Sequence record: NC_135728.1
Origin: a phage
Reading direction: 5' to 3' (one strand)
DNA: 64,000 nucleotides
Positions within the stretch are counted from its first letter, which is position 1, and the number at the start of each line of letters is the position of its first letter. The notes beneath the pieces are model-generated. The model ran no database searches. It was not told the DNA's origin and saw only the letters and a list, made by a program, of their open reading frames with translations. Made by a program: the position numbers and the translations under genes. This document shows, piece by piece, positions 6,530 through 18,144 of the stretch.

Positions 6530-6733
6530 TTGGAGACCGCAATGACACTAAAGTTAACAATTCCAGACAGCTTTTCAGAAAACTTTATCCCAGAAATGAT
6601 GGGTAAGATGCGATCATTGCTTGATCAGATTGAGGAAGCTGTTTGGGAAGACGATGCTGTAGTGGCTAACGAGCTAGTAGATAAGTGTAAAAGTATTATT
6701 GATGCAGTTGAAGAATACTACGGAGGTTTTTGA
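6530..6733 (+). CDS. hypothetical small acidic protein
   Basis: 67-aa ORF with RBS ggagacc; stop overlaps next start. Confidence 0.4.
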   Translation: METAMTLKLTIPDSFSENFIPEMMGKMRSLLDQIEEAVWEDDAVVANELVDKCKSIIDAVEEYYGGF

Positions 6734-7347
6734 TGGATATTATTGTTCTTAACGCCCCACCCAGCAGCGGTAAGGATCACATTGCAGATCTCTTGTTGGA
6801 AGCTATTCCTAACTCACACCATCGTGAGGTTAAGGAGATGCTCTTCAGCGTGGCAATTAAGGCAGCTGGTGTAACTCCTCAACTCTGGAATGCACTTTAT
6901 GACCGCCACTACAAAGAAGAGCCTTGCCCTTTCTTAATGATAGACGGCAAGCATGTTTCTCCGCGAGAGTGGATGATCCATTGTAGTGAAAATCTGATTA
7001 AACCTATCTTTGGTGAAGATGCTTTCGGTAAGGCCGCAGTCACATCCTTGAAGAAAGATTTCCCTAAAGGTAAAGGGGTTGTTGTTTACTCCGATGGTGG
7101 ATTTAAAGAGGAGCTGGCGTGCCTTAGTGAGTACGCATACAGCACAGGTGGAGATCTGTTGTTGTTCCGTATTCACCGTGTCGGATATGACTGGGGAAAT
7201 GATTCCAGAACCTATCTAAGTCTGGAAAAGAACGGAATAAAAGGGATTGAGTTCGATGTTGTAAATCCTGAAGGTGCACCTTGGGAATGTGCATCGGAGA
7301 TTGTGTGCAAGTATATTGATGCTAAAGAGGCCCAAGAAGAATGTTAA
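6730..7347 (+). CDS. deoxynucleoside monophosphate kinase-like
   Basis: N-terminal IIVLNAPPSSGKDHIADLL resembles the P-loop of T4 gp1 dNMP kinase (LSGVKRSGKDTTADFI). Confidence 0.5.
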   Translation: MMDIIVLNAPPSSGKDHIADLLLEAIPNSHHREVKEMLFSVAIKAAGVTPQLWNALYDRHYKEEPCPFLMIDGKHVSPREWMIHCSENLIKPIFGEDAFGKAAVTSLKKDFPKGKGVVVYSDGGFKEELACLSEYAYSTGGDLLLFRIHRVGYDWGNDSRTYLSLEKNGIKGIEFDVVNPEGAPWECASEIVCKYIDAKEAQEEC

Positions 7348-7934
7348 TCGGAATTGATGTAGATTTGACACTGGTAGATTCAGGAACAGCATGGTGGGAG
7401 TGGTTGGAGCGTTTGTATGGTCCAGCCAGTAAGACAGTCGTTAAACCTTCTAATGGGCTGATGTATTACGATCTGTCAAAGTATTGGCCTGATCGCCCCA
7501 AAGAAAACATCATAGGACCTTTTGATTTCTGGAGTGATCCGTTCCTCTACGACTTCCTTAAGCCTGAAGAGGGGGCTATTGAGGTTATGAAAGATTTGGT
7601 GGCTCGCGGTCACAAGCTCGCATTTATCTCGGTATGCAAGAAAGGTCACCTTGCATCTAAATCAAGGTTCTTAAAGCGTTGGACCAGTGATTTTATGGAT
7701 CTGGATGATCACACCCAGGGTCACGGCTTCTACGCCACACATTTCAAAGGTAATGTGGCTGTAGATGTTATAATTGACGACAGGCATGAATACCTGAACC
7801 AATTCGCTTCACGACCTGAAGTTATTAAAATCCTAAAAGACACACCTTATGAGCAATTCGAGGAGTTAAAGGTCAGTGTTGACTATACCACTAATAGCTG
7901 GTATAAAATAGGAAAGTTTTTAGAAGGTATTTGA
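7341..7934 (+). CDS. HAD-superfamily phosphatase (5'-deoxynucleotidase-like)
   Basis: N-terminal GIDVDLTLVD matches HAD motif I (DxDxT/V). Confidence 0.5.
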   Translation: MLIGIDVDLTLVDSGTAWWEWLERLYGPASKTVVKPSNGLMYYDLSKYWPDRPKENIIGPFDFWSDPFLYDFLKPEEGAIEVMKDLVARGHKLAFISVCKKGHLASKSRFLKRWTSDFMDLDDHTQGHGFYATHFKGNVAVDVIIDDRHEYLNQFASRPEVIKILKDTPYEQFEELKVSVDYTTNSWYKIGKFLEGI

Positions 7935-7935
7935 A

Positions 7936-8136
7936 ATGGGCAGATGTTCTAAAGGTGGCGATCCTGTAGTCAGATACGGTGACTGGCTGGAGGTATATGA
8001 TCTGGGGGGCAAGCTAGTGTATGCCTCCAGGATCACCCAAGACATGTGCTCTGATATGTTTAACAGATACCTTGCATTTAAGGCTAACATAAGCCCAGAC
8101 GAAATTTCCAAAATTAAAACAAGGAGAGCTAAATAA
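7936..8136 (+). CDS. hypothetical protein
   Basis: 66-aa ORF abutting neighbours. Confidence 0.35.
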   Translation: MGRCSKGGDPVVRYGDWLEVYDLGGKLVYASRITQDMCSDMFNRYLAFKANISPDEISKIKTRRAK

Positions 8137-9119
8137 TGCTAAAACTGTGCACTGCAAAGATTATTGCTGACAGCATTTCCGAGAAAGGTAAGCGTATCAC
8201 CACTTTTGAGCTAGAGTATCCTCGAATTATTCACTCAGAGCTTATGACGCACCGAGTGTTCAGCCGAAACGCCATGTCTTCCCGTGCAGTACCTGTCGGC
8301 AAGATGCTGCAACAGATTGTGGAGAACCCTGCAATGCCAGTACGCTTCGGTGTAAATAAGCGGGGGATGGAAGATGGTGGAGAACACGATCAAAAGATCC
8401 GTGTAGAGTACACTGACATGGAGTTAACTCCTGAAGAGTTTTGGAAAGAAGCTGCAAAAAACGCAGCTTGGCATGCAGAGAAGTTCGCCCTTGCTGGTTA
8501 CCATAAGCAAGTATGTAACCGCTTAGTGGAGCCGTTTCAGCGCATGAAAACAGTTGTAACAAGCACAGAGTGGAATAATTTCTTCCATCTCCGTTGCTGG
8601 CACGATGCGGACCCTACTATTCAGATGTTGGCTAATTGCATGTGGGAGGCTCTTATGAATAGCACTCCTGAAATCCTTAAACCTGGTCAATGGCACACAC
8701 CATATGTAGAGCACGTTTATTTGGACGGCGAGTTTAACTATGCTGTACGTGACACAGAAGGAAAGCTTTGCATTCTCGATACTGGAGAAGCTCTGTCTAT
8801 TAGTGCTAGTTGCTGTGCACAAGTATCTTATCGAAATATTGACAGCACGTTTGAAAAGGCAGACAGTGTGGCTAAAAAATTGATTGGTGGGGATCGTATT
8901 CATGCAAGCCCTTACGAGCACCAAGCAACACCTATGGATCACGATAACGCAATGGAACGTTTAAACTACTATCTATCTTCATGTGAAATCACACAAGACA
9001 GCTGTGTTTGGCAGGAAGGTGTAACCCATCAAGACCGTGATGGTAAATTCTGGTCTGCCAACTTTTGTGGGTGGGTTCAGCACAGACAACTGCTTAATAA
9101 CCACTTCGTGAAAGGTTAA
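8136..9119 (+). CDS. thyX: flavin-dependent thymidylate synthase ThyX-like
   Basis: THRVFSRNAMSSRAV aligns with the ThyX RHR-x7-S signature; sits in nucleotide-metabolism module; 327 aa is longer than typical ThyX. Confidence 0.5.
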   Translation: MLKLCTAKIIADSISEKGKRITTFELEYPRIIHSELMTHRVFSRNAMSSRAVPVGKMLQQIVENPAMPVRFGVNKRGMEDGGEHDQKIRVEYTDMELTPEEFWKEAAKNAAWHAEKFALAGYHKQVCNRLVEPFQRMKTVVTSTEWNNFFHLRCWHDADPTIQMLANCMWEALMNSTPEILKPGQWHTPYVEHVYLDGEFNYAVRDTEGKLCILDTGEALSISASCCAQVSYRNIDSTFEKADSVAKKLIGGDRIHASPYEHQATPMDHDNAMERLNYYLSSCEITQDSCVWQEGVTHQDRDGKFWSANFCGWVQHRQLLNNHFVKG

Positions 9120-9148
9120 TCCTATCACAGCGATAGGTAACTTTTGTG

Positions 9149-9177
9149 TTGACTAATATTATCAGATAATCTATAAT
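9149..9177 (+). promoter_or_regulatory. sigma70-like promoter TTGACT-N17-TATAAT
   Basis: Hexamers read directly upstream of ORF 9179..9679. Confidence 0.5.
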
Positions 9178-9217
9178 AATGGCTCACTTTGTTGGTGAGC
9201 CAGAAATGGAGACAGAT

Positions 9218-9679
9218 ATGAGTAATGTTATGATTCCTAAAAAGACATTTATTTCAGTTACTTTAGATTTCCTATCTACCGTACCTGGGTTTAACGTTCG
9301 CACACGAAACGGTCTCCGAGCTGCACTCTTCGCCGTAGGCTTTGATTTAAAAAATATTGATGTTCTCCGTGGAAAAAACGTTCGATGCAAAAATAAGCCA
9401 ACCCATTATCGAAAGGCAGATGTGTTTGCTGGTGTCATGCGTGCAGACTTTAGATACCCACAAATGTATAACGGTGTAGATATTTTAGATGTAGATAAAG
9501 CACCTGGTGAGGCAATGCTTGTTCAAGATCTTCCGTATGATATCCCAGTAGAAGATCGTGTTAATGTAAGAAAGTATACAAAACAATCTGAAAAGGCTGA
9601 AGATATTCATATTGTTGATGAACCTTTCAATTTTGAAGATCTGCATCGCCTAGAAAAATTATTCGGTATTGAAAGCTAA
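9218..9679 (+). CDS. hypothetical protein
   Basis: ORF track 9179..9679; ATG at 9218 preceded by ggaga RBS is the likelier start. Confidence 0.45.
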   Translation: MSNVMIPKKTFISVTLDFLSTVPGFNVRTRNGLRAALFAVGFDLKNIDVLRGKNVRCKNKPTHYRKADVFAGVMRADFRYPQMYNGVDILDVDKAPGEAMLVQDLPYDIPVEDRVNVRKYTKQSEKAEDIHIVDEPFNFEDLHRLEKLFGIES

Positions 9680-9920
9680 GGTGGTGAAGATGAGTCATAG
9701 CTCCAAGTGGAAGGATCTTGGTTTTGCAAGTCGGGCAGAGTATGTTGGTTGGCTTTGGTTCAACGGTCTGACAAACGATATTAAAATGTATGATGATGTT
9801 TATTATGACGAGTATACAGGTAAAATTATAAATATCTCTGTAGAAGAGGATACCTTTATCCAGCAAGATACTGATACCTGCCTTGATAAATACGTTAATG
9901 AAGTGGAGGAAGCAAATTGA
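9669..9920 (+). CDS. hypothetical protein
   Basis: 83-aa ORF coupled to neighbours. Confidence 0.4.
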   Translation: MKAKVVKMSHSSKWKDLGFASRAEYVGWLWFNGLTNDIKMYDDVYYDEYTGKIINISVEEDTFIQQDTDTCLDKYVNEVEEAN

Positions 9921-12232
9921 TCACCAAGGTAATTAAAAGCAACGGATGTGAAGTGGCATTCGATCCAGAACGTTTAAATAAGGCAGCTATTTTCGGTGAC
10001 GACGGTAACGGCAATTGGTCACACATTGCACTGGATGCATACAAACGACTGTATGATGGATGTACGACCAAAGAAGTTAACCAAGCTATCATAGACTCCT
10101 GTGTTAGCCGTAAAGACGAAGCACATTCCCGTATGGCTGGTCGTGTTCTTATTGGTCAGATTTATAAAGAGGCTTTTGGAGGGTTTACAAAGATCCCTTC
10201 ATTACCATCATTTTACAATACCATGGTTGAGAAAGGGTATTGGGAGGATATGGGTTATAGCTTTACCGAGCTAAATACTTTAGGCGCTGTTATTGACCAC
10301 AGTAAAGATCTCGGTTACGGCTATGCAGTCCTTAAACAGTTTCGCGACAAATACGGGATCAAGGATACTCTTAAAGACACCCTGTTTGAATCTCCCCAGA
10401 TGATGTTTATGGGGATAGCAATGGCTGTCATGAAGAATATGCCGAAAGAACGTCGTATCAACGATGTTGTAAAATTATACACTTATCTGTCCGACTTAAA
10501 GATCAATGCCCCGACACCGTACTTAAACGGGCTGCGCACAGGTAAGACAGGGTATGCATCTTGTTGTGTAATAAAAGCTGACGATACAGCAAAATCTATT
10601 GGTGTGGCACGTGAAGTTGCGTACACTATGACGGTTAACCAAGCAGGTATCGGCTACTATTTATCATCAAGATCTGCAGGCGATGGTGTTCGTGGTAACA
10701 CTATTAAACACATGGGTAAGATTCCATATTATCGAGGTATTGATGCTGGGGTTAAGGAGAACAGACAACAATCACGTGGCGGTTCTGCAACAGTATCATT
10801 CCTTGCACTGGATCCGCAGATTGATGAGCTAATCCGTTTGAGAAACCCTATGACTGTTGCTTCAAAAAGAATCAACACCATGGACTACTCTATAGGTATT
10901 AACAGGTCGTTTATCAACCGTGTGGCTAAGAATTTAGATTGGATGCTTGTTTCTTATAAGCACGCGCCTCAACTGCATGAGGGTATCTTCACCATGTCTA
11001 TGGAGGAGTTTGATGCAGAGGTTGATCGTATCGCTAAAGATGACAGTATTCCTAAAACATGGATCCGAGCTAGAGATCTTGCTGTTGAGCTGATCACGCA
11101 GCGTACTGAGGTGGGAAGACTGTACGTATACTGGACAGATGAGATGAATAGACATACACCTTTTAAAGATGTGATCTATTCAAGTAACCTGTGTGCAGAA
11201 ATAGCCCTCCCGACAAAAGGCTATTCAGATATGCGTAATATCTTCAAGTACGATGCTGATGATGGCGAGGTTGCATTGTGCTTCCTGTCATCTCTTGTAG
11301 CTGGAAGGGTTACCCCAGAGGAGTATGAGGATGTTGCATATTACACGGTGCTTATGATTGACAATGTTATGGAAATCATGACATATCCGTATGAAAATAT
11401 GGAGAGCACTGTTAAAAAACGCAGATCCATCGGGGTTGGCCTTACCAACGTTGCACATTTTATTGCCAGCCATAAGGTTACTTACGGATCTCCTGAAAGT
11501 AAACAGCTTGTTCACGATCTTGCAGAACTTCACAGCTACAGCTTGCATAAGGCAAGTTTACGGTTGGCAAAAGAGCGTGGTGTCTGCGAGTGGATGCATA
11601 AAACAAAATATCCAGAAGGTTGGTTACCAATCGACACCTATAACAAAGAGGTCGATAGCGTGGTGAAAGATCCTTCTCTTAAACAGGATTGGGAAGGGTT
11701 ACGTAAAGAAATCATTGAAAATGGTGGGCTACGTAATAGCGTTCTTGAAGCATATATGCCTAATGAAAGCTCTTCGCTGGCAACAAACACCACTAACGGG
11801 GTTTATCCTGTCCGTGAGCACATTATCTTTAAAAAATCGCCACAAGGGCAGGTGCTGTTTATCGTTCCTGAATACGATGAGCTGAAAGAGTATTACACTT
11901 CGGCTTGGGACGTTGATACTAACGACATGATCGATATGTATGCTGTGATTCAAAAATTCACAGGCCAGGCAATCAGCGCGGATTTATACATAGACTACAC
12001 CAAGTTGAAAGATGGTAAAATTTCAATGAAGGAGCAGCTAGGGTACCTTATCCGTGCCACTAAATTCGGGATGAAGACATGGTATTATTTAAACTCCAGG
12101 GTTGGTGCTGGTGACTCCTTGGCAGAGGAACTTCATGCCAAGAAACAAGCTGAAGATGAAACCAGAAAGAACTATCCTTTGATTGCAGATAGTTCAGTTG
12201 AAGATCCGTATTGCGAAAGCTGTGCATTGTAA
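9917..12232 (+). CDS. nrdA: ribonucleotide reductase class Ia large subunit
   Basis: 771 aa; N-terminal ATP-cone (VIKSNGCEVAFDPERLNKA); catalytic NLCAEIALPT; TTG start after ggagg RBS; followed by nrdB. Confidence 0.9.
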   Translation: MITKVIKSNGCEVAFDPERLNKAAIFGDDGNGNWSHIALDAYKRLYDGCTTKEVNQAIIDSCVSRKDEAHSRMAGRVLIGQIYKEAFGGFTKIPSLPSFYNTMVEKGYWEDMGYSFTELNTLGAVIDHSKDLGYGYAVLKQFRDKYGIKDTLKDTLFESPQMMFMGIAMAVMKNMPKERRINDVVKLYTYLSDLKINAPTPYLNGLRTGKTGYASCCVIKADDTAKSIGVAREVAYTMTVNQAGIGYYLSSRSAGDGVRGNTIKHMGKIPYYRGIDAGVKENRQQSRGGSATVSFLALDPQIDELIRLRNPMTVASKRINTMDYSIGINRSFINRVAKNLDWMLVSYKHAPQLHEGIFTMSMEEFDAEVDRIAKDDSIPKTWIRARDLAVELITQRTEVGRLYVYWTDEMNRHTPFKDVIYSSNLCAEIALPTKGYSDMRNIFKYDADDGEVALCFLSSLVAGRVTPEEYEDVAYYTVLMIDNVMEIMTYPYENMESTVKKRRSIGVGLTNVAHFIASHKVTYGSPESKQLVHDLAELHSYSLHKASLRLAKERGVCEWMHKTKYPEGWLPIDTYNKEVDSVVKDPSLKQDWEGLRKEIIENGGLRNSVLEAYMPNESSSLATNTTNGVYPVREHIIFKKSPQGQVLFIVPEYDELKEYYTSAWDVDTNDMIDMYAVIQKFTGQAISADLYIDYTKLKDGKISMKEQLGYLIRATKFGMKTWYYLNSRVGAGDSLAEELHAKKQAEDETRKNYPLIADSSVEDPYCESCAL

Positions 12233-12238
12233 TTTTAA

Positions 12239-12254
12239 AGGGGCTTCGGCCCCT
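12239..12254 (+). other. intercistronic stem-loop between nrdA and nrdB
   Basis: GGGGC-TTCG-GCCCC tetraloop hairpin between nrdA stop and nrdB RBS; no strong U-tract. Confidence 0.4.
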
Positions 12255-12271
12255 GTCTTAGAGGTAGAATA

Positions 12272-13360
12272 ATGGCTGTATTTAATGCTGAGAACACTGC
12301 TCATAAAACTGGTGACTATCCGCTGTTTTTAGGACAGCAAATGGGTATGTACGACTCTATTAACAAAAAATATCCACAACTGTTCGAACTGTACAAAAAA
12401 CAAAAAGAACAAGACTGGGCAGAGGATGAAGTGGATTTGTCGCAATCTATTTCAGATTTTGTAACATGCTCCAAGTCAACTTATGACGTGATGGTGCAGA
12501 CCTTGATGTGGCAATGGGAGGCTGATAGCGTTGCGGCAAGATCGATCATCTGCCTCTTTTCACCATTCATCACTAATAGTGAGCTTTTCACTCTATTGAT
12601 GAAACAGTCAGAGATTGAAGTTCTTCACGCACTAACCTACTCAGAGATTGTTAGACAATGCCTTCCTAATGCTCGGGAGATTATAGAAGAGATTCAGGAA
12701 AACCAGAACGTACTGAGCAGATCTGGAGTTATTGTCAAATACATGCAAGAGCTTGAGGTTATTGGTGCAAAATATCGACTGGATCCTTTTAGTGTTGAAG
12801 AAGATACTGTGCGGAAATGCATTCTTAGAGCGCTTTTTGCACTTTTAGCTCTAGAAAGTATTGAGTTTATTGCAAGTTTTGCATGCACTTTCGCAGTAGC
12901 TGAACAGGGTATTTTTGTTCAGGTGGCACAGCTTGTTCAAAAAATCATGCTTGACGAAATGCTACATTCGAAAGGTGATTTTGCCATCATTGATATCCTG
13001 CTTAATGATCCAGCATGGGAGAAAAGCTTCCTTGAGATAAAGGGAGAGTTAAAAGAGATTCTTGATGAAGTACGGACCAAGGAGTACGGTTGGAGTGACT
13101 ATATTTTCAGCGAAGGAAGAGCGATTATAGGTCTTAACTCACCGTTGCTTAAAGAATGGGTTGACTATAACTGCTCACCGATTTATGATTACTACGACAT
13201 CGACAAAGACTTTGTGCCGCCAACAAAGGACCCGCTACCGTTTATGCAGGTGTGGATGAAACCTTCATTGCAACAGACGGCTAACCAGGAAATGTCGAAC
13301 ACCGACTACCGAGTCAACACAACTGTTAACGACGCTGAAGAAGAAATTTGGGAGTTTTAA
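12272..13360 (+). CDS. nrdB: ribonucleotide reductase class Ia small subunit
   Basis: 362 aa directly downstream of nrdA; ferritin-like length and motif spacing (ESIEFIASFACTF..., DEMLH). Confidence 0.8.
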   Translation: MAVFNAENTAHKTGDYPLFLGQQMGMYDSINKKYPQLFELYKKQKEQDWAEDEVDLSQSISDFVTCSKSTYDVMVQTLMWQWEADSVAARSIICLFSPFITNSELFTLLMKQSEIEVLHALTYSEIVRQCLPNAREIIEEIQENQNVLSRSGVIVKYMQELEVIGAKYRLDPFSVEEDTVRKCILRALFALLALESIEFIASFACTFAVAEQGIFVQVAQLVQKIMLDEMLHSKGDFAIIDILLNDPAWEKSFLEIKGELKEILDEVRTKEYGWSDYIFSEGRAIIGLNSPLLKEWVDYNCSPIYDYYDIDKDFVPPTKDPLPFMQVWMKPSLQQTANQEMSNTDYRVNTTVNDAEEEIWEF

Positions 13361-13363
13361 TAT

Positions 13364-13642
13364 ATGAGCTGTGAAAAATCTTTTTTCTTTATTATTTACG
13401 GTAAAGATAACTGCCCACATTGTGTAAGAGCAAAAGAATTTGCAGTCAGTAAAGGTCTGCCTTTTGTATATAAGACACTTGGAGAGGGATACACAAAAGA
13501 AGAGCTTATTGAGAAGTGTAGTCCAATCGTCCCAAGAACGTTACCGCAGATCTTCTTAGAAAGCGATCTTGATAGTGTCCATGTAGGTGGTGCCGACGAT
13601 TTCATCTCTTTTGTTAAGAATGATTTTGGAGAGAAAAAGTGA
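13364..13642 (+). CDS. glutaredoxin/NrdH-like redoxin
   Basis: 92 aa with CPHC active site in thioredoxin-fold context (IIYGKDNCPHCVRAKEF) between RNR genes. Confidence 0.65.
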   Translation: MSCEKSFFFIIYGKDNCPHCVRAKEFAVSKGLPFVYKTLGEGYTKEELIEKCSPIVPRTLPQIFLESDLDSVHVGGADDFISFVKNDFGEKK

Positions 13643-15762
13643 AAGTTGTAAAACGGGACGGTAGAGAAGAGGTCTATAACGGAATTAAGGTGATCAAGGC
13701 GGCAGAGTCCGCCTTACTTGAGTCTGGACATACTGAAGAAGAAGCTTACCGGATCGCCTGCGCGGTTAATGAAGTTGTTGCTAACAATCTACCAACCGAC
13801 CAGTGCACGATCTCTGTAAAAAATATCCATATCCTTGTTGAAGACGCTCTTATGGATATGGGTTTAAAATGTGCAGCCAGAGAATACATCCAGTATAGGC
13901 AGACAAGAGATAATAACAGAGAGGCAGGTGGAAAACTGCTTGCAGATATTAGTGGCTTCTTGGATCGCACTTGTGATGAATTTACAAAAGAAAACGCAAA
14001 TAAGCCTACCAACCATGTACACACTCATCGTGACCTGCTTGCAGGCATCCTTAGCAAACACCTTGCATCAACACAGATCCTGCCAGACCGTGTCTCCGAA
14101 GAGCACAATAAAGGCTTCATCCATGTGCATGATCTTGATTATTTGATCAGTCCGTTAACAAACTGTTGTTTGGTAAATTATCCAGATATGCTGGAAAACG
14201 GATTCAACATTGGTAACGCCCATGTCAGTAAGCCGAAGTCAATAGGGGTTGCAACAACAATCCTTAGCCAAATCTCTAGTGCGGTAGCTAGTGCTCAATA
14301 TGGCGGTCAGACTATGAGCCATATTGATCATTATCTGGCACAGTATGCTGAAGCAACCTATGAGAAGAACCTTAAATTTTGCCAGGAACATTGGTTGCCA
14401 GATGCTGAGACTGTTGCAATGCAAATGACAGATAAAGACGTATTTGACAGCATGCAGACTTTGCTCTATCAAATCAATACGTTAACTTCTGTCAACGGGC
14501 AAACTCCATTCATTACATTAAGTTTGGGTCTGGACACCTCAGTATTTGGTAGAATGATTACCAAAAACTACTTGAAAGTCCACAAAATGGGTCTTGGTGA
14601 AGAACGTATCACACCTGTGTTCCCTAAAGTGCTGTTCTTCCTAGAAGAGGGTGTCAACATGAACCCTGGAGATCCTAACTATGATTTGAAACGATTAGCT
14701 CTGGAATGCTCTGCAGAGCGGATTTATCCTGACTTTGTTTCTGTTCCACTAAATCGTAAAGTGACAGGCTCGACAGATGGCAAAGTAACGAGCATGGGTT
14801 GCCGGAGTTTTCTTAGCAAATACAATGACTTGGAAACAGGTGAGGAGAAATACCTCGGCAGATTCAATTTGGGTGTTGTTAGTCTTAACCTACCAATGAT
14901 TGCGGCAAAAGCTAAGACGGAAGGTGTTGATTTCTTTGCCGTTCTTGACGAATACCTGGATCTTGCATACGAGGCTCACCTTGTAAGGGTTAACCGTCTA
15001 AAAGGAACAAAGGCAGGGCAGAACCCTATCATGTGGTGTGAAGGTGCTCTTGCTCGCCTGGATCCTGAAGAGAGTATTGATAAACTCTTCTATGACGGGT
15101 ACGCTTCCATCAGTATTGGGTATATTGGTGTGTATGAAACCTGTCAGATTTTGGGCAGGGAGGGTGACAAGGCTTTAGCTCTTGGAATACTTCAGCACAT
15201 GAGAGATGCTTGCGAGCGATACAAGAAGGAAAGTAGACTAGCGTTTAGCTTGTACGGCACCCCTTCTGAGAGTCTATGCTATAAAGCTGCAACCTGTCTG
15301 GATCGTGAATATCCTGAAGTGTTGAAGCACGAGCATGAATATCTCACCAACAGTTTCCATCAGCCAGTGTGGATCAATAGCTCTCCTTTTGATAAGTGGG
15401 AATATGAGGAAGGTTTTGCTATGATCTCCTCTGGTGGCAACATCGGGTACGTAGAGACACCAAATCTGAAAAACAACTTAGATGCTTTAGAGGCTCTTGT
15501 TGACTTCGGGTATAAACACATTATGTATTTTGGTATTAACCAACCTGTGGATAAATGTCTCAAGTGTGGTTTCTCTGGTGAGTTCAGTGCAACAGCTAAA
15601 GGCTTTGTATGCCCAGAGTGTGGAAACCATGAAGAGGGAACGATCAGTGTGATCAGACGTGTATCCGGGTACCTGTCTAGTCCAAACTCCCGTCCTTACA
15701 ATAAAGGTAAGCAAGCGGAAGTTATCGAGCGGGTTAAGCACTATGGAAGTTGTAGTTGCTGA
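13639..15762 (+). CDS. nrdD: anaerobic ribonucleotide reductase class III
   Basis: 707 aa; ATP-cone N-terminus; C-terminal zinc ribbon CLKCG...CPECG and glycyl-radical motif RRVSGYL; GTG start. Confidence 0.9.
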   Translation: MKVVKRDGREEVYNGIKVIKAAESALLESGHTEEEAYRIACAVNEVVANNLPTDQCTISVKNIHILVEDALMDMGLKCAAREYIQYRQTRDNNREAGGKLLADISGFLDRTCDEFTKENANKPTNHVHTHRDLLAGILSKHLASTQILPDRVSEEHNKGFIHVHDLDYLISPLTNCCLVNYPDMLENGFNIGNAHVSKPKSIGVATTILSQISSAVASAQYGGQTMSHIDHYLAQYAEATYEKNLKFCQEHWLPDAETVAMQMTDKDVFDSMQTLLYQINTLTSVNGQTPFITLSLGLDTSVFGRMITKNYLKVHKMGLGEERITPVFPKVLFFLEEGVNMNPGDPNYDLKRLALECSAERIYPDFVSVPLNRKVTGSTDGKVTSMGCRSFLSKYNDLETGEEKYLGRFNLGVVSLNLPMIAAKAKTEGVDFFAVLDEYLDLAYEAHLVRVNRLKGTKAGQNPIMWCEGALARLDPEESIDKLFYDGYASISIGYIGVYETCQILGREGDKALALGILQHMRDACERYKKESRLAFSLYGTPSESLCYKAATCLDREYPEVLKHEHEYLTNSFHQPVWINSSPFDKWEYEEGFAMISSGGNIGYVETPNLKNNLDALEALVDFGYKHIMYFGINQPVDKCLKCGFSGEFSATAKGFVCPECGNHEEGTISVIRRVSGYLSSPNSRPYNKGKQAEVIERVKHYGSCSC

Positions 15763-15765
15763 TAC

Positions 15766-15795
15766 TTGACAAAAGCCACAAGGATGTGGCATATT
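15766..15795 (+). promoter_or_regulatory. promoter with palindromic operator in spacer
   Basis: TTGACA then spacer containing palindrome GCCACAAGGATGTGGC then CATATT; precedes small ORF at 15826. Confidence 0.4.
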
Positions 15796-15825
15796 ATTGA
15801 CACACAGTGAGCTAGGAGGTACAGT

Positions 15826-15942
15826 ATGTCTAAAGGTATTTATAAAATTTGCAAGTGTGGTTGTCGTTGCAATCTTCGTTGGTGCAAGGCACTTGATGAT
15901 TTTATTTGGCATTGCCCTGAATGCGATGCGGAGTACTTATAA
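15826..15942 (+). CDS. small zinc-ribbon protein (38 aa)
   Basis: Below ORF-track cutoff; ATG after aggagg RBS; translation MSKGIYKICKCGCRCNLRWCKALDDFIWHCPECDAEYL carries paired Cys motifs. Confidence 0.35.
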   Translation: MSKGIYKICKCGCRCNLRWCKALDDFIWHCPECDAEYL

Positions 15943-16093
15943 GCATAAGGGGTCGAAATGCGGAAATCTATCAAGAAAATCAAGATAAGATTGTTGGTAC
16001 TGAAGCGTAAGTATAAAAAGTTATACGGCTTCATTAAATGGACTTTTATAGGTTTATCTTGAATAGAAGCACACCACAGAAGAGAGGTTCCTT

Positions 16094-16330
16094 ATGATAG
16101 GTGTCTGTGTAAAAGCTAACAGATGGTTTACATTCGGTAAGGATTACGAAATTATCTTTCATTCGGACAGAGCCACAACAGTAGAAAGCGATGATGGGTG
16201 CTACTGGTTCGTTAGTTACCATGGTGATGGGTATTATAGATCTACTGATTCCAGAGGGGAAGAAGCTGTTTTCTTAGATAGAGCTTATTGTGGGCCTGAA
16301 TATCCCTACCTCAAAGAGGATAAGGAATGA
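16094..16330 (+). CDS. hypothetical protein
   Basis: 78-aa ORF, stop overlaps nrdG start. Confidence 0.4.
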   Translation: MIGVCVKANRWFTFGKDYEIIFHSDRATTVESDDGCYWFVSYHGDGYYRSTDSRGEEAVFLDRAYCGPEYPYLKEDKE

Positions 16331-16800
16331 ATGTTGTTAATATTATAGAGTGTAGCATGGTTGACGGCCCAGGCATTAGGACAACGGTGTTCTGTTCTGG
16401 TTGCCCACATCACTGTGTCGGTTGCCAAAACAAAAGTGTTTGGTCACCAGCTAAAGGTGAACCGTTAACAAATGACACTATTGAGAGTATACTTCACTCT
16501 ATAGAGCCGAAACATATTACTGGCGTTACATTATGCGGTGGCGAACCTTTAGCGCCTTACAATATCGATGGTATGTACTCGATCATTCGCGCTATCCGTG
16601 AACGCTTCGGCAACACAAAAACTATCTGGGTGTACACAGGGTATTTGTTTGAAGAGGTTCCCGATCACATTAAAGATAGTGTCGATTACATTATGGATGG
16701 TAAGTACGAAAAAGATAACCCTACCAAAAAAACCTTCAGAGGTAGTGATAACCAAAGAATGTTTAAAAAGGTAGCAGGCGGTTGGGTTCAGGTTGACTAA
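16327..16800 (+). CDS. nrdG: anaerobic RNR activating enzyme (radical SAM)
   Basis: 157 aa; Cys cluster CSGCPHHCVGC near N-terminus; follows nrdD. Confidence 0.8.
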   Translation: MNVVNIIECSMVDGPGIRTTVFCSGCPHHCVGCQNKSVWSPAKGEPLTNDTIESILHSIEPKHITGVTLCGGEPLAPYNIDGMYSIIRAIRERFGNTKTIWVYTGYLFEEVPDHIKDSVDYIMDGKYEKDNPTKKTFRGSDNQRMFKKVAGGWVQVD

Positions 16801-16803
16801 TTG

Positions 16804-16833
16804 TTGACAAAGCTTTGTTAAGTTGGTTATAAT
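16804..16833 (+). promoter_or_regulatory. sigma70-like promoter TTGACA-N18-TATAAT
   Basis: Perfect -35 and -10 hexamers read directly; followed by aggagg RBS. Confidence 0.55.
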
Positions 16834-17355: not shown

Positions 17356-18144
17356 ATGGGTCGAGCTAAAGAAACAAAACGCATGCGTGATGAAGCTAGA
17401 GAGGCTCGCAAATCTGATCGCCTGCGTAAGGCTGCTGAGAAATTTGCTGACGAACGAGAGCACACAGCTCCAGCTCTCCGACCAATGAATAAAAAGCAGC
17501 AAAAGTATCTTGATTATCTAGGGTCACGTAAGATTATTATTGTAAACGGTGTGTTTGGATCCGGTAAGACATTCATGGCATCTGCATATGCAGGTGATCT
17601 TCTGCGTAAGAACGAGATTGATAAGATCATTGTTGCACGTCCTTACGTTCAGACAGGAAAGACTTCAGGATTTAAACCTGGAAATGCAATGCAGAAACTG
17701 TGGCCCTATCTTAGAAGCATGATGGACACGATTTGTCGTCGTGTTGGCAAAGGTGCTTTTGCCGCAATGCTGGGAGACGGTCAGAACAGCCGTATCGAGA
17801 TTTGTGAGGTTGAAAGCATTCGTGGTCGTAGTTTCGATGAGCGATGCTTTGTCCTGATTGACGAGGCACAGCAAACTAACCCTGAAGAAATGTTGTCAAT
17901 TATCACAAGGATCTCTGATCAGGCCACTCTTGTAATTATGGGAGATAATAGTCAACGTGACATCCCTGGTAAATCTGGCCTTGCATGGGTGACAGATTTC
18001 TTTACTCGTCATCCAGATCCTGAGGTTGGAATGATCAGCTTTGATAGTCCAGACGATGTCGTTCGTTCCGGGTTGGGTCGTCAGATTGCACTCAATCTTA
18101 TTGAGGATCGTGCAAATCATATTTGGACCCCTGTTTCCGAGTAA
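17356..18144 (+). CDS. phoH: PhoH-like ATPase
   Basis: Walker A GVFGSGKTF, Walker B-like VLIDEAQ, overall PhoH-like layout. Confidence 0.75.
   Translation: MGRAKETKRMRDEAREARKSDRLRKAAEKFADEREHTAPALRPMNKKQQKYLDYLGSRKIIIVNGVFGSGKTFMASAYAGDLLRKNEIDKIIVARPYVQTGKTSGFKPGNAMQKLWPYLRSMMDTICRRVGKGAFAAMLGDGQNSRIEICEVESIRGRSFDERCFVLIDEAQQTNPEEMLSIITRISDQATLVIMGDNSQRDIPGKSGLAWVTDFFTRHPDPEVGMISFDSPDDVVRSGLGRQIALNLIEDRANHIWTPVSE

Follow-up and report, generated by a model that had tools for sequence, protein, structure and literature searches.

The phage sequence record NC_135728.1 carries a gene for an unusual relative of the flavin-dependent thymidylate synthase ThyX. We analysed a stretch of 64,000 nucleotides from this record, referred to below as the window; all genes and open reading frames of the cluster described here lie on the + strand. 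The ThyX-like gene (8136-9119) encodes a 327-residue protein, a putative flavin-dependent thymidylate synthase that belongs to a distinct, almost exclusively viral clade of ThyX. By profile comparison, the canonical N-terminal module of ThyX (helix 1, the folate loop, helix 2 and the HxxPxEH motif) has moved behind the catalytic core within a single domain, and two residues treated as essential in ThyX, Arg78 and Tyr91, are replaced throughout most or all of the clade. We consider it probable that the protein is nonetheless a genuine synthase that converts deoxyuridine monophosphate (dUMP) to deoxythymidine monophosphate (dTMP) with a re-wired active site. The gene is part of the deoxynucleotide-supply cluster of an rV5-like (Vequintavirus) Escherichia coli phage. 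The ThyX variant is the one unusual, and under-examined, part of that cluster; the rest is ordinary and has been annotated before.

Profile searches place the protein in the ThyX family. Pfam Thy1 (PF02511) matches with an E value of 2.2e-9 and 37.8 bits, against a gathering threshold of 24.8, with only residues 23-179 aligned, to positions 60-191 of the 191-position profile. The match to phrog_85 has an E value of 1e-112. The protein has the ThyX fold, whose absence would have refuted the initial annotation, and it is longer than usual, as that annotation described (about 100 residues over the typical length): four solved ThyX proteins have 208-250 residues. Searches of structural databases returned little. 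No PDB sequence matched the protein in phmmer, the family profile reached Thermotoga maritima ThyX in the PDB at an E value of 0.78 only, and the sole matches in BFVD were other phage entries named 'thymidylate synthase'.

The phage family itself is very large. Clustering at 90% identity gives more than 7500 clusters; at 50% identity there are 5028 representatives, of which 1982 have E values below 1e-30. The gene occurs in 1035 phage records from many lineages, including Vequintavirinae, Phapecoctavirus, ICP1, Pakpunavirus, N4-like phages, phiCbK-like Caulobacter phages, and Flavobacterium and Cellulophaga phages. A crude scan of 185,579 species genomes with two exact peptide patterns, itself weak evidence for viral restriction, returned only 17 loci, mostly on contigs of metagenome-assembled genomes. 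Genes already annotated as 'putative' or 'FAD-dependent thymidylate synthase' (FAD, flavin adenine dinucleotide), such as rV5 gp106 and the members of PHROG 85, belong to the same family as the window protein and have the same invariant residues. The literature, which was incompletely covered, yielded no report of a rearranged or permuted ThyX.

The rearrangement emerged when a 131-sequence alignment of the family was split at residue 182 and each half was compared, using hhalign, with an alignment of four solved ThyX proteins whose sequences were verified against the PDB: T. maritima TM0449 (1KQ4/1O26), Mycobacterium tuberculosis (2AF6), PBCV-1 A674R (2CFA) and Helicobacter pylori (3AH5). The N-terminal half (residues 9-182) aligns with T. 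maritima residues 48-203 at an E value of 1.3e-13 and a probability of 98%. Within it, the catalytic core (residues 19-180; 8190-8675) corresponds roughly to T. maritima residues 59-203. The relocated module (residues 222-270; 8799-8945) corresponds to T. maritima residues 21-67, with an E value of 2.1e-5 and a score of 36.9. In T. maritima this segment holds helix 1, the folate loop with Ser30, helix 2, the motif H53-E-T-P-F-E-H59 and strand 2; in the window protein the equivalent places are filled by S231, H256, S258, E261 and H262. Controls scored far lower: the highest score among 60 column shuffles was 18.5, and reversing the alignment gave 12.0. Pfam Thy1 provides independent support, as its positions 2-56 and 12-66 are matched, with E values of 0.004 and 0.008, by the C-terminal halves of two out of six divergent relatives.

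The window protein and canonical ThyX therefore share the order of the core, from strand 2 to the last helix, but differ in where the module of helix 1, helix 2 and HxxPxEH is found: between strands 1 and 2 in canonical ThyX, and after the core here. The window protein also has an additional linker, GxWHxPY, as well as a C-terminal tail (residues 295-319; 9018-9092). The tail includes the invariant or near-invariant N309, Q315 and R317 and has no reliable canonical counterpart, aligning to T. maritima residues 157-176 at low confidence only. When modelled in isolation, the C-terminal half is not confidently folded (predicted local distance difference test, pLDDT, of 61), so we regard it as an integral part of the domain.

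This rearrangement is visible only with the wider profiles. In a raw pairwise alignment of the T. maritima N-terminus with the C-terminal half, the match was limited to HETPFEH and HASPYEH, and equally high scores arose in 66 of 1000 shuffles; a narrow family alignment compared with the single T. maritima sequence gave an hhalign probability of 3.6%.

A tandem duplication, in which the long protein would be a pseudo-dimer, was considered and rejected. The two halves have no mutual similarity (hhalign E value of 0.23), and family members of 520-680 residues, which might suggest repeated copies, are single copies carrying inteins. In the six such relatives, a ThyX-like protein is interrupted by insertions of about 300 residues whose first residue is Cys and whose last residues are SGN, with Cys or Ser coming next. 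LAGLIDADG_3 domains were present in two of the three insertions examined. Three insertion sites are used, equivalent to H33|S34 (just before THR), H156|D157 (after L152-R153) and H256|A257 (inside HASPxEH) of the window protein. Inteins usually reside in catalytically important motifs. An intein inside HxSPxEH thus fits the relocated motif being part of the active site.

The active site was compared by assigning residues through profile alignment rather than structure superposition, and conservation was counted among 131 representatives with at most 50% mutual identity. The variant ThyX motif THRVFSRNAMSSR runs from T38 to R50 (8247-8285) and includes T38, H39, R40, S43, S48 and R50, where canonical ThyX has RHRxxSxxxxSxR; the next residue, A51, occupies the place of canonical Tyr91. 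The initial annotation had read this motif correctly as THR...S.R in place of RHR...S.R. The change is no peculiarity of one phage but a signature of the huge phage family, with T38 in 126 of the 131 representatives.

Much of the canonical site is retained around this substitution. Within the motif, His79 corresponds to H39 (131/131), Arg80 to R40 (109/131, plus 8 with Lys) Asn85 to N45 (123/131), Ser88 to S48 (130/131) and Arg90, one of the dUMP-binding arginines, to R50 (131/131). The other arginines that bind dUMP are also kept: Arg147 as R129 (130/131), Arg174 as R153 (131/131) and M. tuberculosis Arg87 as R30 (128/131). Asn169 is represented by N148 in 130 sequences. Folate and flavin contacts recur in the relocated segment, where S231 stands for Ser30 and H256 for His53 (both 131/131), S258 for Thr55 (126/131) and E261 for Glu58 (127/131). 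In canonical ThyX, His53 makes stacking contacts with the folate and flavin, while Ser30 forms a hydrogen bond to the flavin C4=O (PMC11940539). In addition, the family has invariants of its own that lack a canonical counterpart: H187, P189 and R317 are present in all representatives, and N309 and Q315 in nearly all. The residue pattern is constant across six lineages that share 36-54% mutual identity.

Genomic context, like the retained residues, favours ordinary dTMP synthesis. As in the window, the genes of a Caulobacter siphophage follow the order dNMP (deoxynucleoside monophosphate) kinase, ThyX-like gene and ribonucleotide reductase (RNR). One N4-like coliphage has a deoxycytidine triphosphate (dCTP) deaminase gene 1 kb upstream of the ThyX-like gene, and in ICP1 and Pakpunavirus an RNR gene lies within 1.5-3 kb. 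N4-like roseophages have been reported to carry thyX together with dcd, with a ratio of nonsynonymous to synonymous substitution rates (dN/dS) of 0.18 for thyX (PMC11934525; PMC2784036). Neither the window nor 118 kb of the 137-kb genome of the related phage JES2013 gave a match to ThyA, dihydrofolate reductase (DHFR) or dUTPase below an E value of 1 when searched locally by tblastn with unverified sequences of the E. coli proteins ThyA, FolA and Dut. ThyX chemistry releases tetrahydrofolate and not dihydrofolate, and the absence of ThyA and DHFR fits such chemistry. Finally, the BASEL study found that Vequintavirinae "are exceptionally susceptible" to restriction-modification (RM) systems (PMC8594841), which speaks against a modified base taking the place of thymine in bulk; our literature searches found nothing relevant on DNA modification in Vequintavirus.

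On the strength of these gene contexts, the lack of ThyA and DHFR, the RM sensitivity, the invariant R153 and the retained nucleotide-binding residues, we infer that the protein probably makes dTMP from dUMP with a flavin cofactor. Some of the family-specific invariants presumably take over the roles of Arg78 and Tyr91, with H187 and R317 as candidates suggested by their conservation. R233 had also been considered as a substitute for Arg78 and was downgraded, as it varies among distant lineages: phiST has Leu at this position, and an N4-like phage has Asn.

Several observations weigh against this assignment. The NCBIfam thyX equivalog TIGR02170 scores 39.1 bits, below its curated cutoff of 87.9. 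Arg78 is replaced by Thr in those representatives that carry T38, so the canonical RHR is absent, and Tyr91 is replaced by A51 in all 131, a change that the initial annotation had missed. At the flavin-contacting positions, Glu86 has become A46 or Ser, Arg165 has become T144 (128/131) and His178 has become D157 or Ala; we assume the FAD-binding roles of Arg165 and His178 in part from the T. maritima structure. In the model of the full protein, residues 221-260 reach a pLDDT of only 58-70, and the equivalence of the relocated module is shown by profile comparison only. Within the limited literature covered, we found no genetic or biochemical test of a clade member. We therefore label the protein a member of a variant clade: it has the Thy1 fold and exceeds the Pfam threshold, but its equivalog score falls short, and the RHR motif, Tyr91 and the colinear order of segments are missing. 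The suggestion that the protein might be divergent is accordingly well founded, given the sub-cutoff TIGR02170 score, the rearranged segments, THR as a clade signature and the change of Tyr91 to Ala.

The lost residues are of consequence in canonical ThyX. The first Arg of RHR forms hydrogen bonds to the isoalloxazine and dUMP, and together with Arg174 is listed among the residues that hold dUMP (PMC6514825). The guanidinium of Arg78 is aimed at the flavin N1/C2=O and stabilises FADH- (PMC11940539). Tyr91 and Ser88 are described as strictly conserved and critical, and when Tyr91 of T. maritima ThyX is mutated, flavin oxidation becomes about 1000-fold slower (PMC11940539). These losses allow for readings other than a re-wired FAD-dependent dTMP synthase.

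One such reading is that dTMP is still made with a different cofactor arrangement, for example with flavin mononucleotide (FMN) in place of FAD or in another oligomeric state. This idea follows from the altered residues that hold the flavin phosphates and ribityl chain and from the new C-terminal tail. The substitutions T38, T144 and D157 at canonical flavin positions are in keeping with it, as are the new invariants H187, N309, Q315 and R317 and a C-terminal half that appears integral to the domain. But the argument is purely inferential, and the motif residues His79 and Arg80, which contact the flavin phosphate and ribityl groups, are kept. On balance we regard a changed cofactor arrangement as rather unlikely.

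A second reading holds that the enzyme is neofunctionalised, making another C5-modified pyrimidine nucleotide through a flavin and folate relay or acting on another substrate. Examples would be 5-hydroxymethyl-dUMP, formed by water capture of the exocyclic methylene, or the use of uridine monophosphate (UMP), as by PolB, or of deoxycytidine monophosphate (dCMP). Arg78 and Tyr91 are both tied to the reductive and methylene-transfer steps, so that their loss, like the sub-cutoff TIGR02170 score, is what a change of chemistry might leave behind. However, R153, the equivalent of Arg174, is invariant, and the nucleotide-binding residues R30, S48, R50 and R129 are invariant or nearly so. We take Arg174 to read uracil O4. 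Bulk base modification is at odds with the RM sensitivity of Vequintavirinae, the ThyX-like gene is not adjoined by genes for downstream hypermodification, and its neighbours encode dNMP kinase, RNR and dCTP/dCMP deaminase. Moreover, no second thymidylate synthase (ThyA) was found by tblastn in the window and the 118 kb of JES2013. PolB itself, the UMP/dUMP methylase of polyoxin biosynthesis (PDB 4P5A), comes from a Streptomyces antibiotic cluster, and nothing in the window points to a ribonucleotide substrate. PolB presumably has the canonical segment order and the RHR motif. Neofunctionalisation is thus unlikely, and the 'alternative function' raised in the initial annotation finds no support: the dUMP-binding Arg and Ser residues and the flavin and folate contacts are kept, genes of the deoxythymidine triphosphate (dTTP) pathway are neighbours in distant phages, and Vequintavirinae are RM-sensitive. 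Extended to the whole clade, the proposal would be that the enzymes lacking Arg78 and Tyr91, in more than 1000 known phages, use a different flavin- and folate-dependent C5 chemistry or pyrimidine substrate; we give this proposal a low probability. In a milder version they would still make dTMP, with a re-wired site and possibly another flavin form.

That the protein is a catalytically dead or regulatory relic, binding dUMP or flavin only, is highly improbable: two residues regarded as critical are gone, but about 25 positions are invariant or nearly so among the 131 representatives, from Caulobacter siphophages to E. coli myophages, the gene is kept in more than 1000 isolates, inteins occupy three of its motifs, and dN/dS in roseophages is low at the value given above.

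A dTMP synthase with a re-wired site thus remains the preferred reading, and its source phage is readily placed. A megablast search with the ThyX-like gene returned 120 GenBank phage records. In 118 of these the match spans 80% or more of the gene, and identity is 95-99% in nearly every case. With few exceptions the records are of Escherichia phages belonging to the genus Vequintavirus (rV5-like myophages). The closest nucleotide match is vB_EcoM-Pr121LW (99.1%), and the protein is 100% identical to its counterpart in phage phita32, compared with 36-54% for its counterparts in distant lineages. About 20 unannotated 'Campylobacter phage' records (MG0656xx series) have 96-98% identity to the E. 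coli phage gene; these are probably mislabelled or reflect coliphages contaminating those preparations. The RefSeq genome of JES2013 has an identical gene order surrounding the ThyX-like gene. In rV5, gp106 was named as thymidylate synthase and gp109-112 plus gp117 as RNR subunits in 2013 (rV5 paper). The module is therefore ordinary, as the rV5 cluster of thymidylate synthase, NrdAB, glutaredoxin and NrdDG has been in print since then.

The initial annotation described a complete nucleotide-synthesis module at 8136-16800 made up of eight contiguous genes: dNMP kinase, a HAD (haloacid dehalogenase) phosphatase, the ThyX-like gene, NrdA, NrdB, glutaredoxin, NrdD and NrdG. Pfam and PHROG matches confirm that all eight are real, lie on the + strand and follow the order given. 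Only six fall within that interval, however, the dNMP kinase and HAD genes lying upstream of 8136. The gene order stands but strict contiguity does not, since small open reading frames (ORFs) intervene at 7936-8136, 9179/9218-9679, 9669-9920, 15826-15942 and 16094-16330. 'Complete' is an overstatement, as no dCMP/dCTP deaminase, dUTPase, DHFR or ThyA is annotated in JES2013.

Upstream of the ThyX-like gene, a T4 gp1-like dNMP kinase (6730/6733-7347) matches phrog_139 (E 2.6e-44) and has the P-loop NAPPSSGKD; it had no Pfam or NCBIfam match. Its start is likely the ATG at 6733, and the JES2013 homologue in RefSeq is 3 nt shorter than the 6730-7347 ORF. It is followed by an NT5C-type 5'-deoxyribonucleotidase-like gene of the HAD superfamily (7341-7934), which matches PF06941 (26.5 bits, cutoff 24.8; E 6.9e-6) and phrog_420 (E 1.2e-46). 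This gene is intact in the window and annotated as two ORFs in JES2013 (ORF98 and ORF99, at 9205-9799), where it may be frameshifted; alternatively, it may be dispensable. A conserved 66-residue ORF with no assigned function (7936-8136; phrog_4903, E 1.2e-34) separates it from the ThyX-like gene. Two further conserved ORFs with no assigned function stand between the ThyX-like gene and NrdA, and both are kept in JES2013. The first (9179-9679) aligns with phrog_5557 from residue 14 (E 7.2e-75); its probable start is the ATG at 9218, and the JES2013 homologue has 153 residues. The second (9669-9920) matches phrog_5488 (E 2.1e-41). Neither had a Pfam match or a significant NCBIfam match.

The class I RNR is encoded by NrdA (9917-12232; PF02867, Ribonuc_red_lgC, E 1.8e-100; PF00317, E 7.2e-14) and NrdB (12272-13360; PF00268, E 7.8e-30). 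Their domains are those of a class I enzyme, putatively of subclass Ia, with barrel and all-alpha domains in the large subunit and a ferritin-like small subunit. A glutaredoxin with a CPHC motif (13364-13642; PF00462, E 1.4e-7) is the likely reductant for NrdAB. The anaerobic, class III enzyme consists of NrdD (13639-15762; PF13597, NRDD, E 4.7e-161; Gly_radical, E 2.9e-23; ATP-cone, E 1.6e-13) and its radical S-adenosylmethionine (SAM) activase NrdG (16327-16800; PF13353, Fer4_12, E 7.4e-39; PF04055, Radical_SAM, E 9.7e-10; motif CPHHCVGC). The class is evident from the NRDD domain, the glycyl-radical motif RVSGYL near the C terminus of NrdD and the CxxxCxxC motif of the activase. The TTG start of NrdA and the GTG start of NrdD given in the initial annotation both hold. 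The TTG of NrdA at 9917 lies 7 nt past GGAGG and overlaps the stop codon of the upstream ORF (ATTGA), and the GTG of NrdD at 13639 follows GGAGAG and overlaps the glutaredoxin stop codon (GTGA). In both cases the resulting length equals the JES2013 RefSeq call.

The space between NrdD and NrdG holds two small ORFs. A 38-residue Cys-rich ORF, MSKGIYKICKCGCRCNLRWCKALDDFIWHCPECDAEYL (15826-15942), has a strong AGGAGG ribosome-binding site. It was missing from the list of ORFs of 50 residues or more and is conserved in JES2013 as ORF108, where it carries the name 'ribonucleotide reductase'; its product may be a zinc-ribbon-like protein that partners the anaerobic RNR. A 78-residue ORF with no assigned function (16094-16330; phrog_3249, E 1.3e-26) is not found in JES2013. 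It is part of an insertion in the alignment (15943-16330) that makes the spacer about 390 bp longer than that of JES2013. The rV5 numbering, which passes from gp112 to gp117, implies more ORFs between the RNR genes of that phage, and so this spot looks variable. Directly 3' of the cluster is a gene for a PhoH-like ATPase (17356-18144), annotated as such in JES2013.

Promoter-like sites were seen at 9149-9177 (11/12 of the sigma-70 consensus), just past a hairpin that follows the ThyX-like stop codon (both within 9121-9177), at 15766-15795, just past NrdD and overlapping a hairpin at 15775-15790, and at 16804-16833 (12/12 of the sigma-70 consensus), just past NrdG. The cluster may be split into several transcription units. 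The total of promoter-like sites in the region is not above that of shuffled sequence.

Together, these genes suggest how the phage may supply deoxynucleotides during infection. When oxygen is present, NrdAB and the phage glutaredoxin would reduce ribonucleotides; in the anoxic gut, NrdD activated by NrdG would do so. The ThyX-like protein would convert dUMP to dTMP with a carbon from methylene-tetrahydrofolate and reducing equivalents from reduced flavin, and for the latter reason a phage DHFR would not be needed. The gp1-like dNMP kinase would phosphorylate the products, and the NT5C-like nucleotidase may trim the pools. A thymidylate-synthesis role like that of canonical ThyX fits this genomic context. 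By analogy, the cluster would function like the deoxynucleotide genes of T4 (td, frd, nrdAB, nrdDG, gene 1 and nrdC/nrdH), with a ThyX-type enzyme replacing Td and Frd. Both are large virulent coliphages with an aerobic and an anaerobic RNR, a redoxin, a dNMP kinase and a thymidylate synthase. T4, however, has ThyA (td) and DHFR (frd) as well as dCMP hydroxymethylase, dCTPase and dCMP deaminase, whereas the window phage has a ThyX-type enzyme and no DHFR.

The gene cluster itself offers nothing new, being a published nucleotide-metabolism module of the rV5 type. Its ThyX variant has wider implications. Members of this clade are labelled 'FAD-dependent thymidylate synthase' in more than 1000 phage genomes; the records and papers examined attach no experimental evidence to that label, and we found no member that had been tested experimentally. 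The clade is present in phages used or proposed for therapy and biocontrol, the therapy-relevant ones including rV5-like, PAK_P1-like, ICP1 and N4-like phages, and for these the source of dTTP is of practical relevance. ThyX serves as a target for antibacterials and as a model for mechanistic work, and Arg78 and Tyr91 count as essential in it. If a huge natural clade does without both residues and has its segments reordered, it would reveal either that their roles can be supplied from elsewhere or that a different chemistry is at work. If the protein is indeed a re-wired dTMP synthase, residues thought indispensable for ThyX catalysis would prove replaceable.

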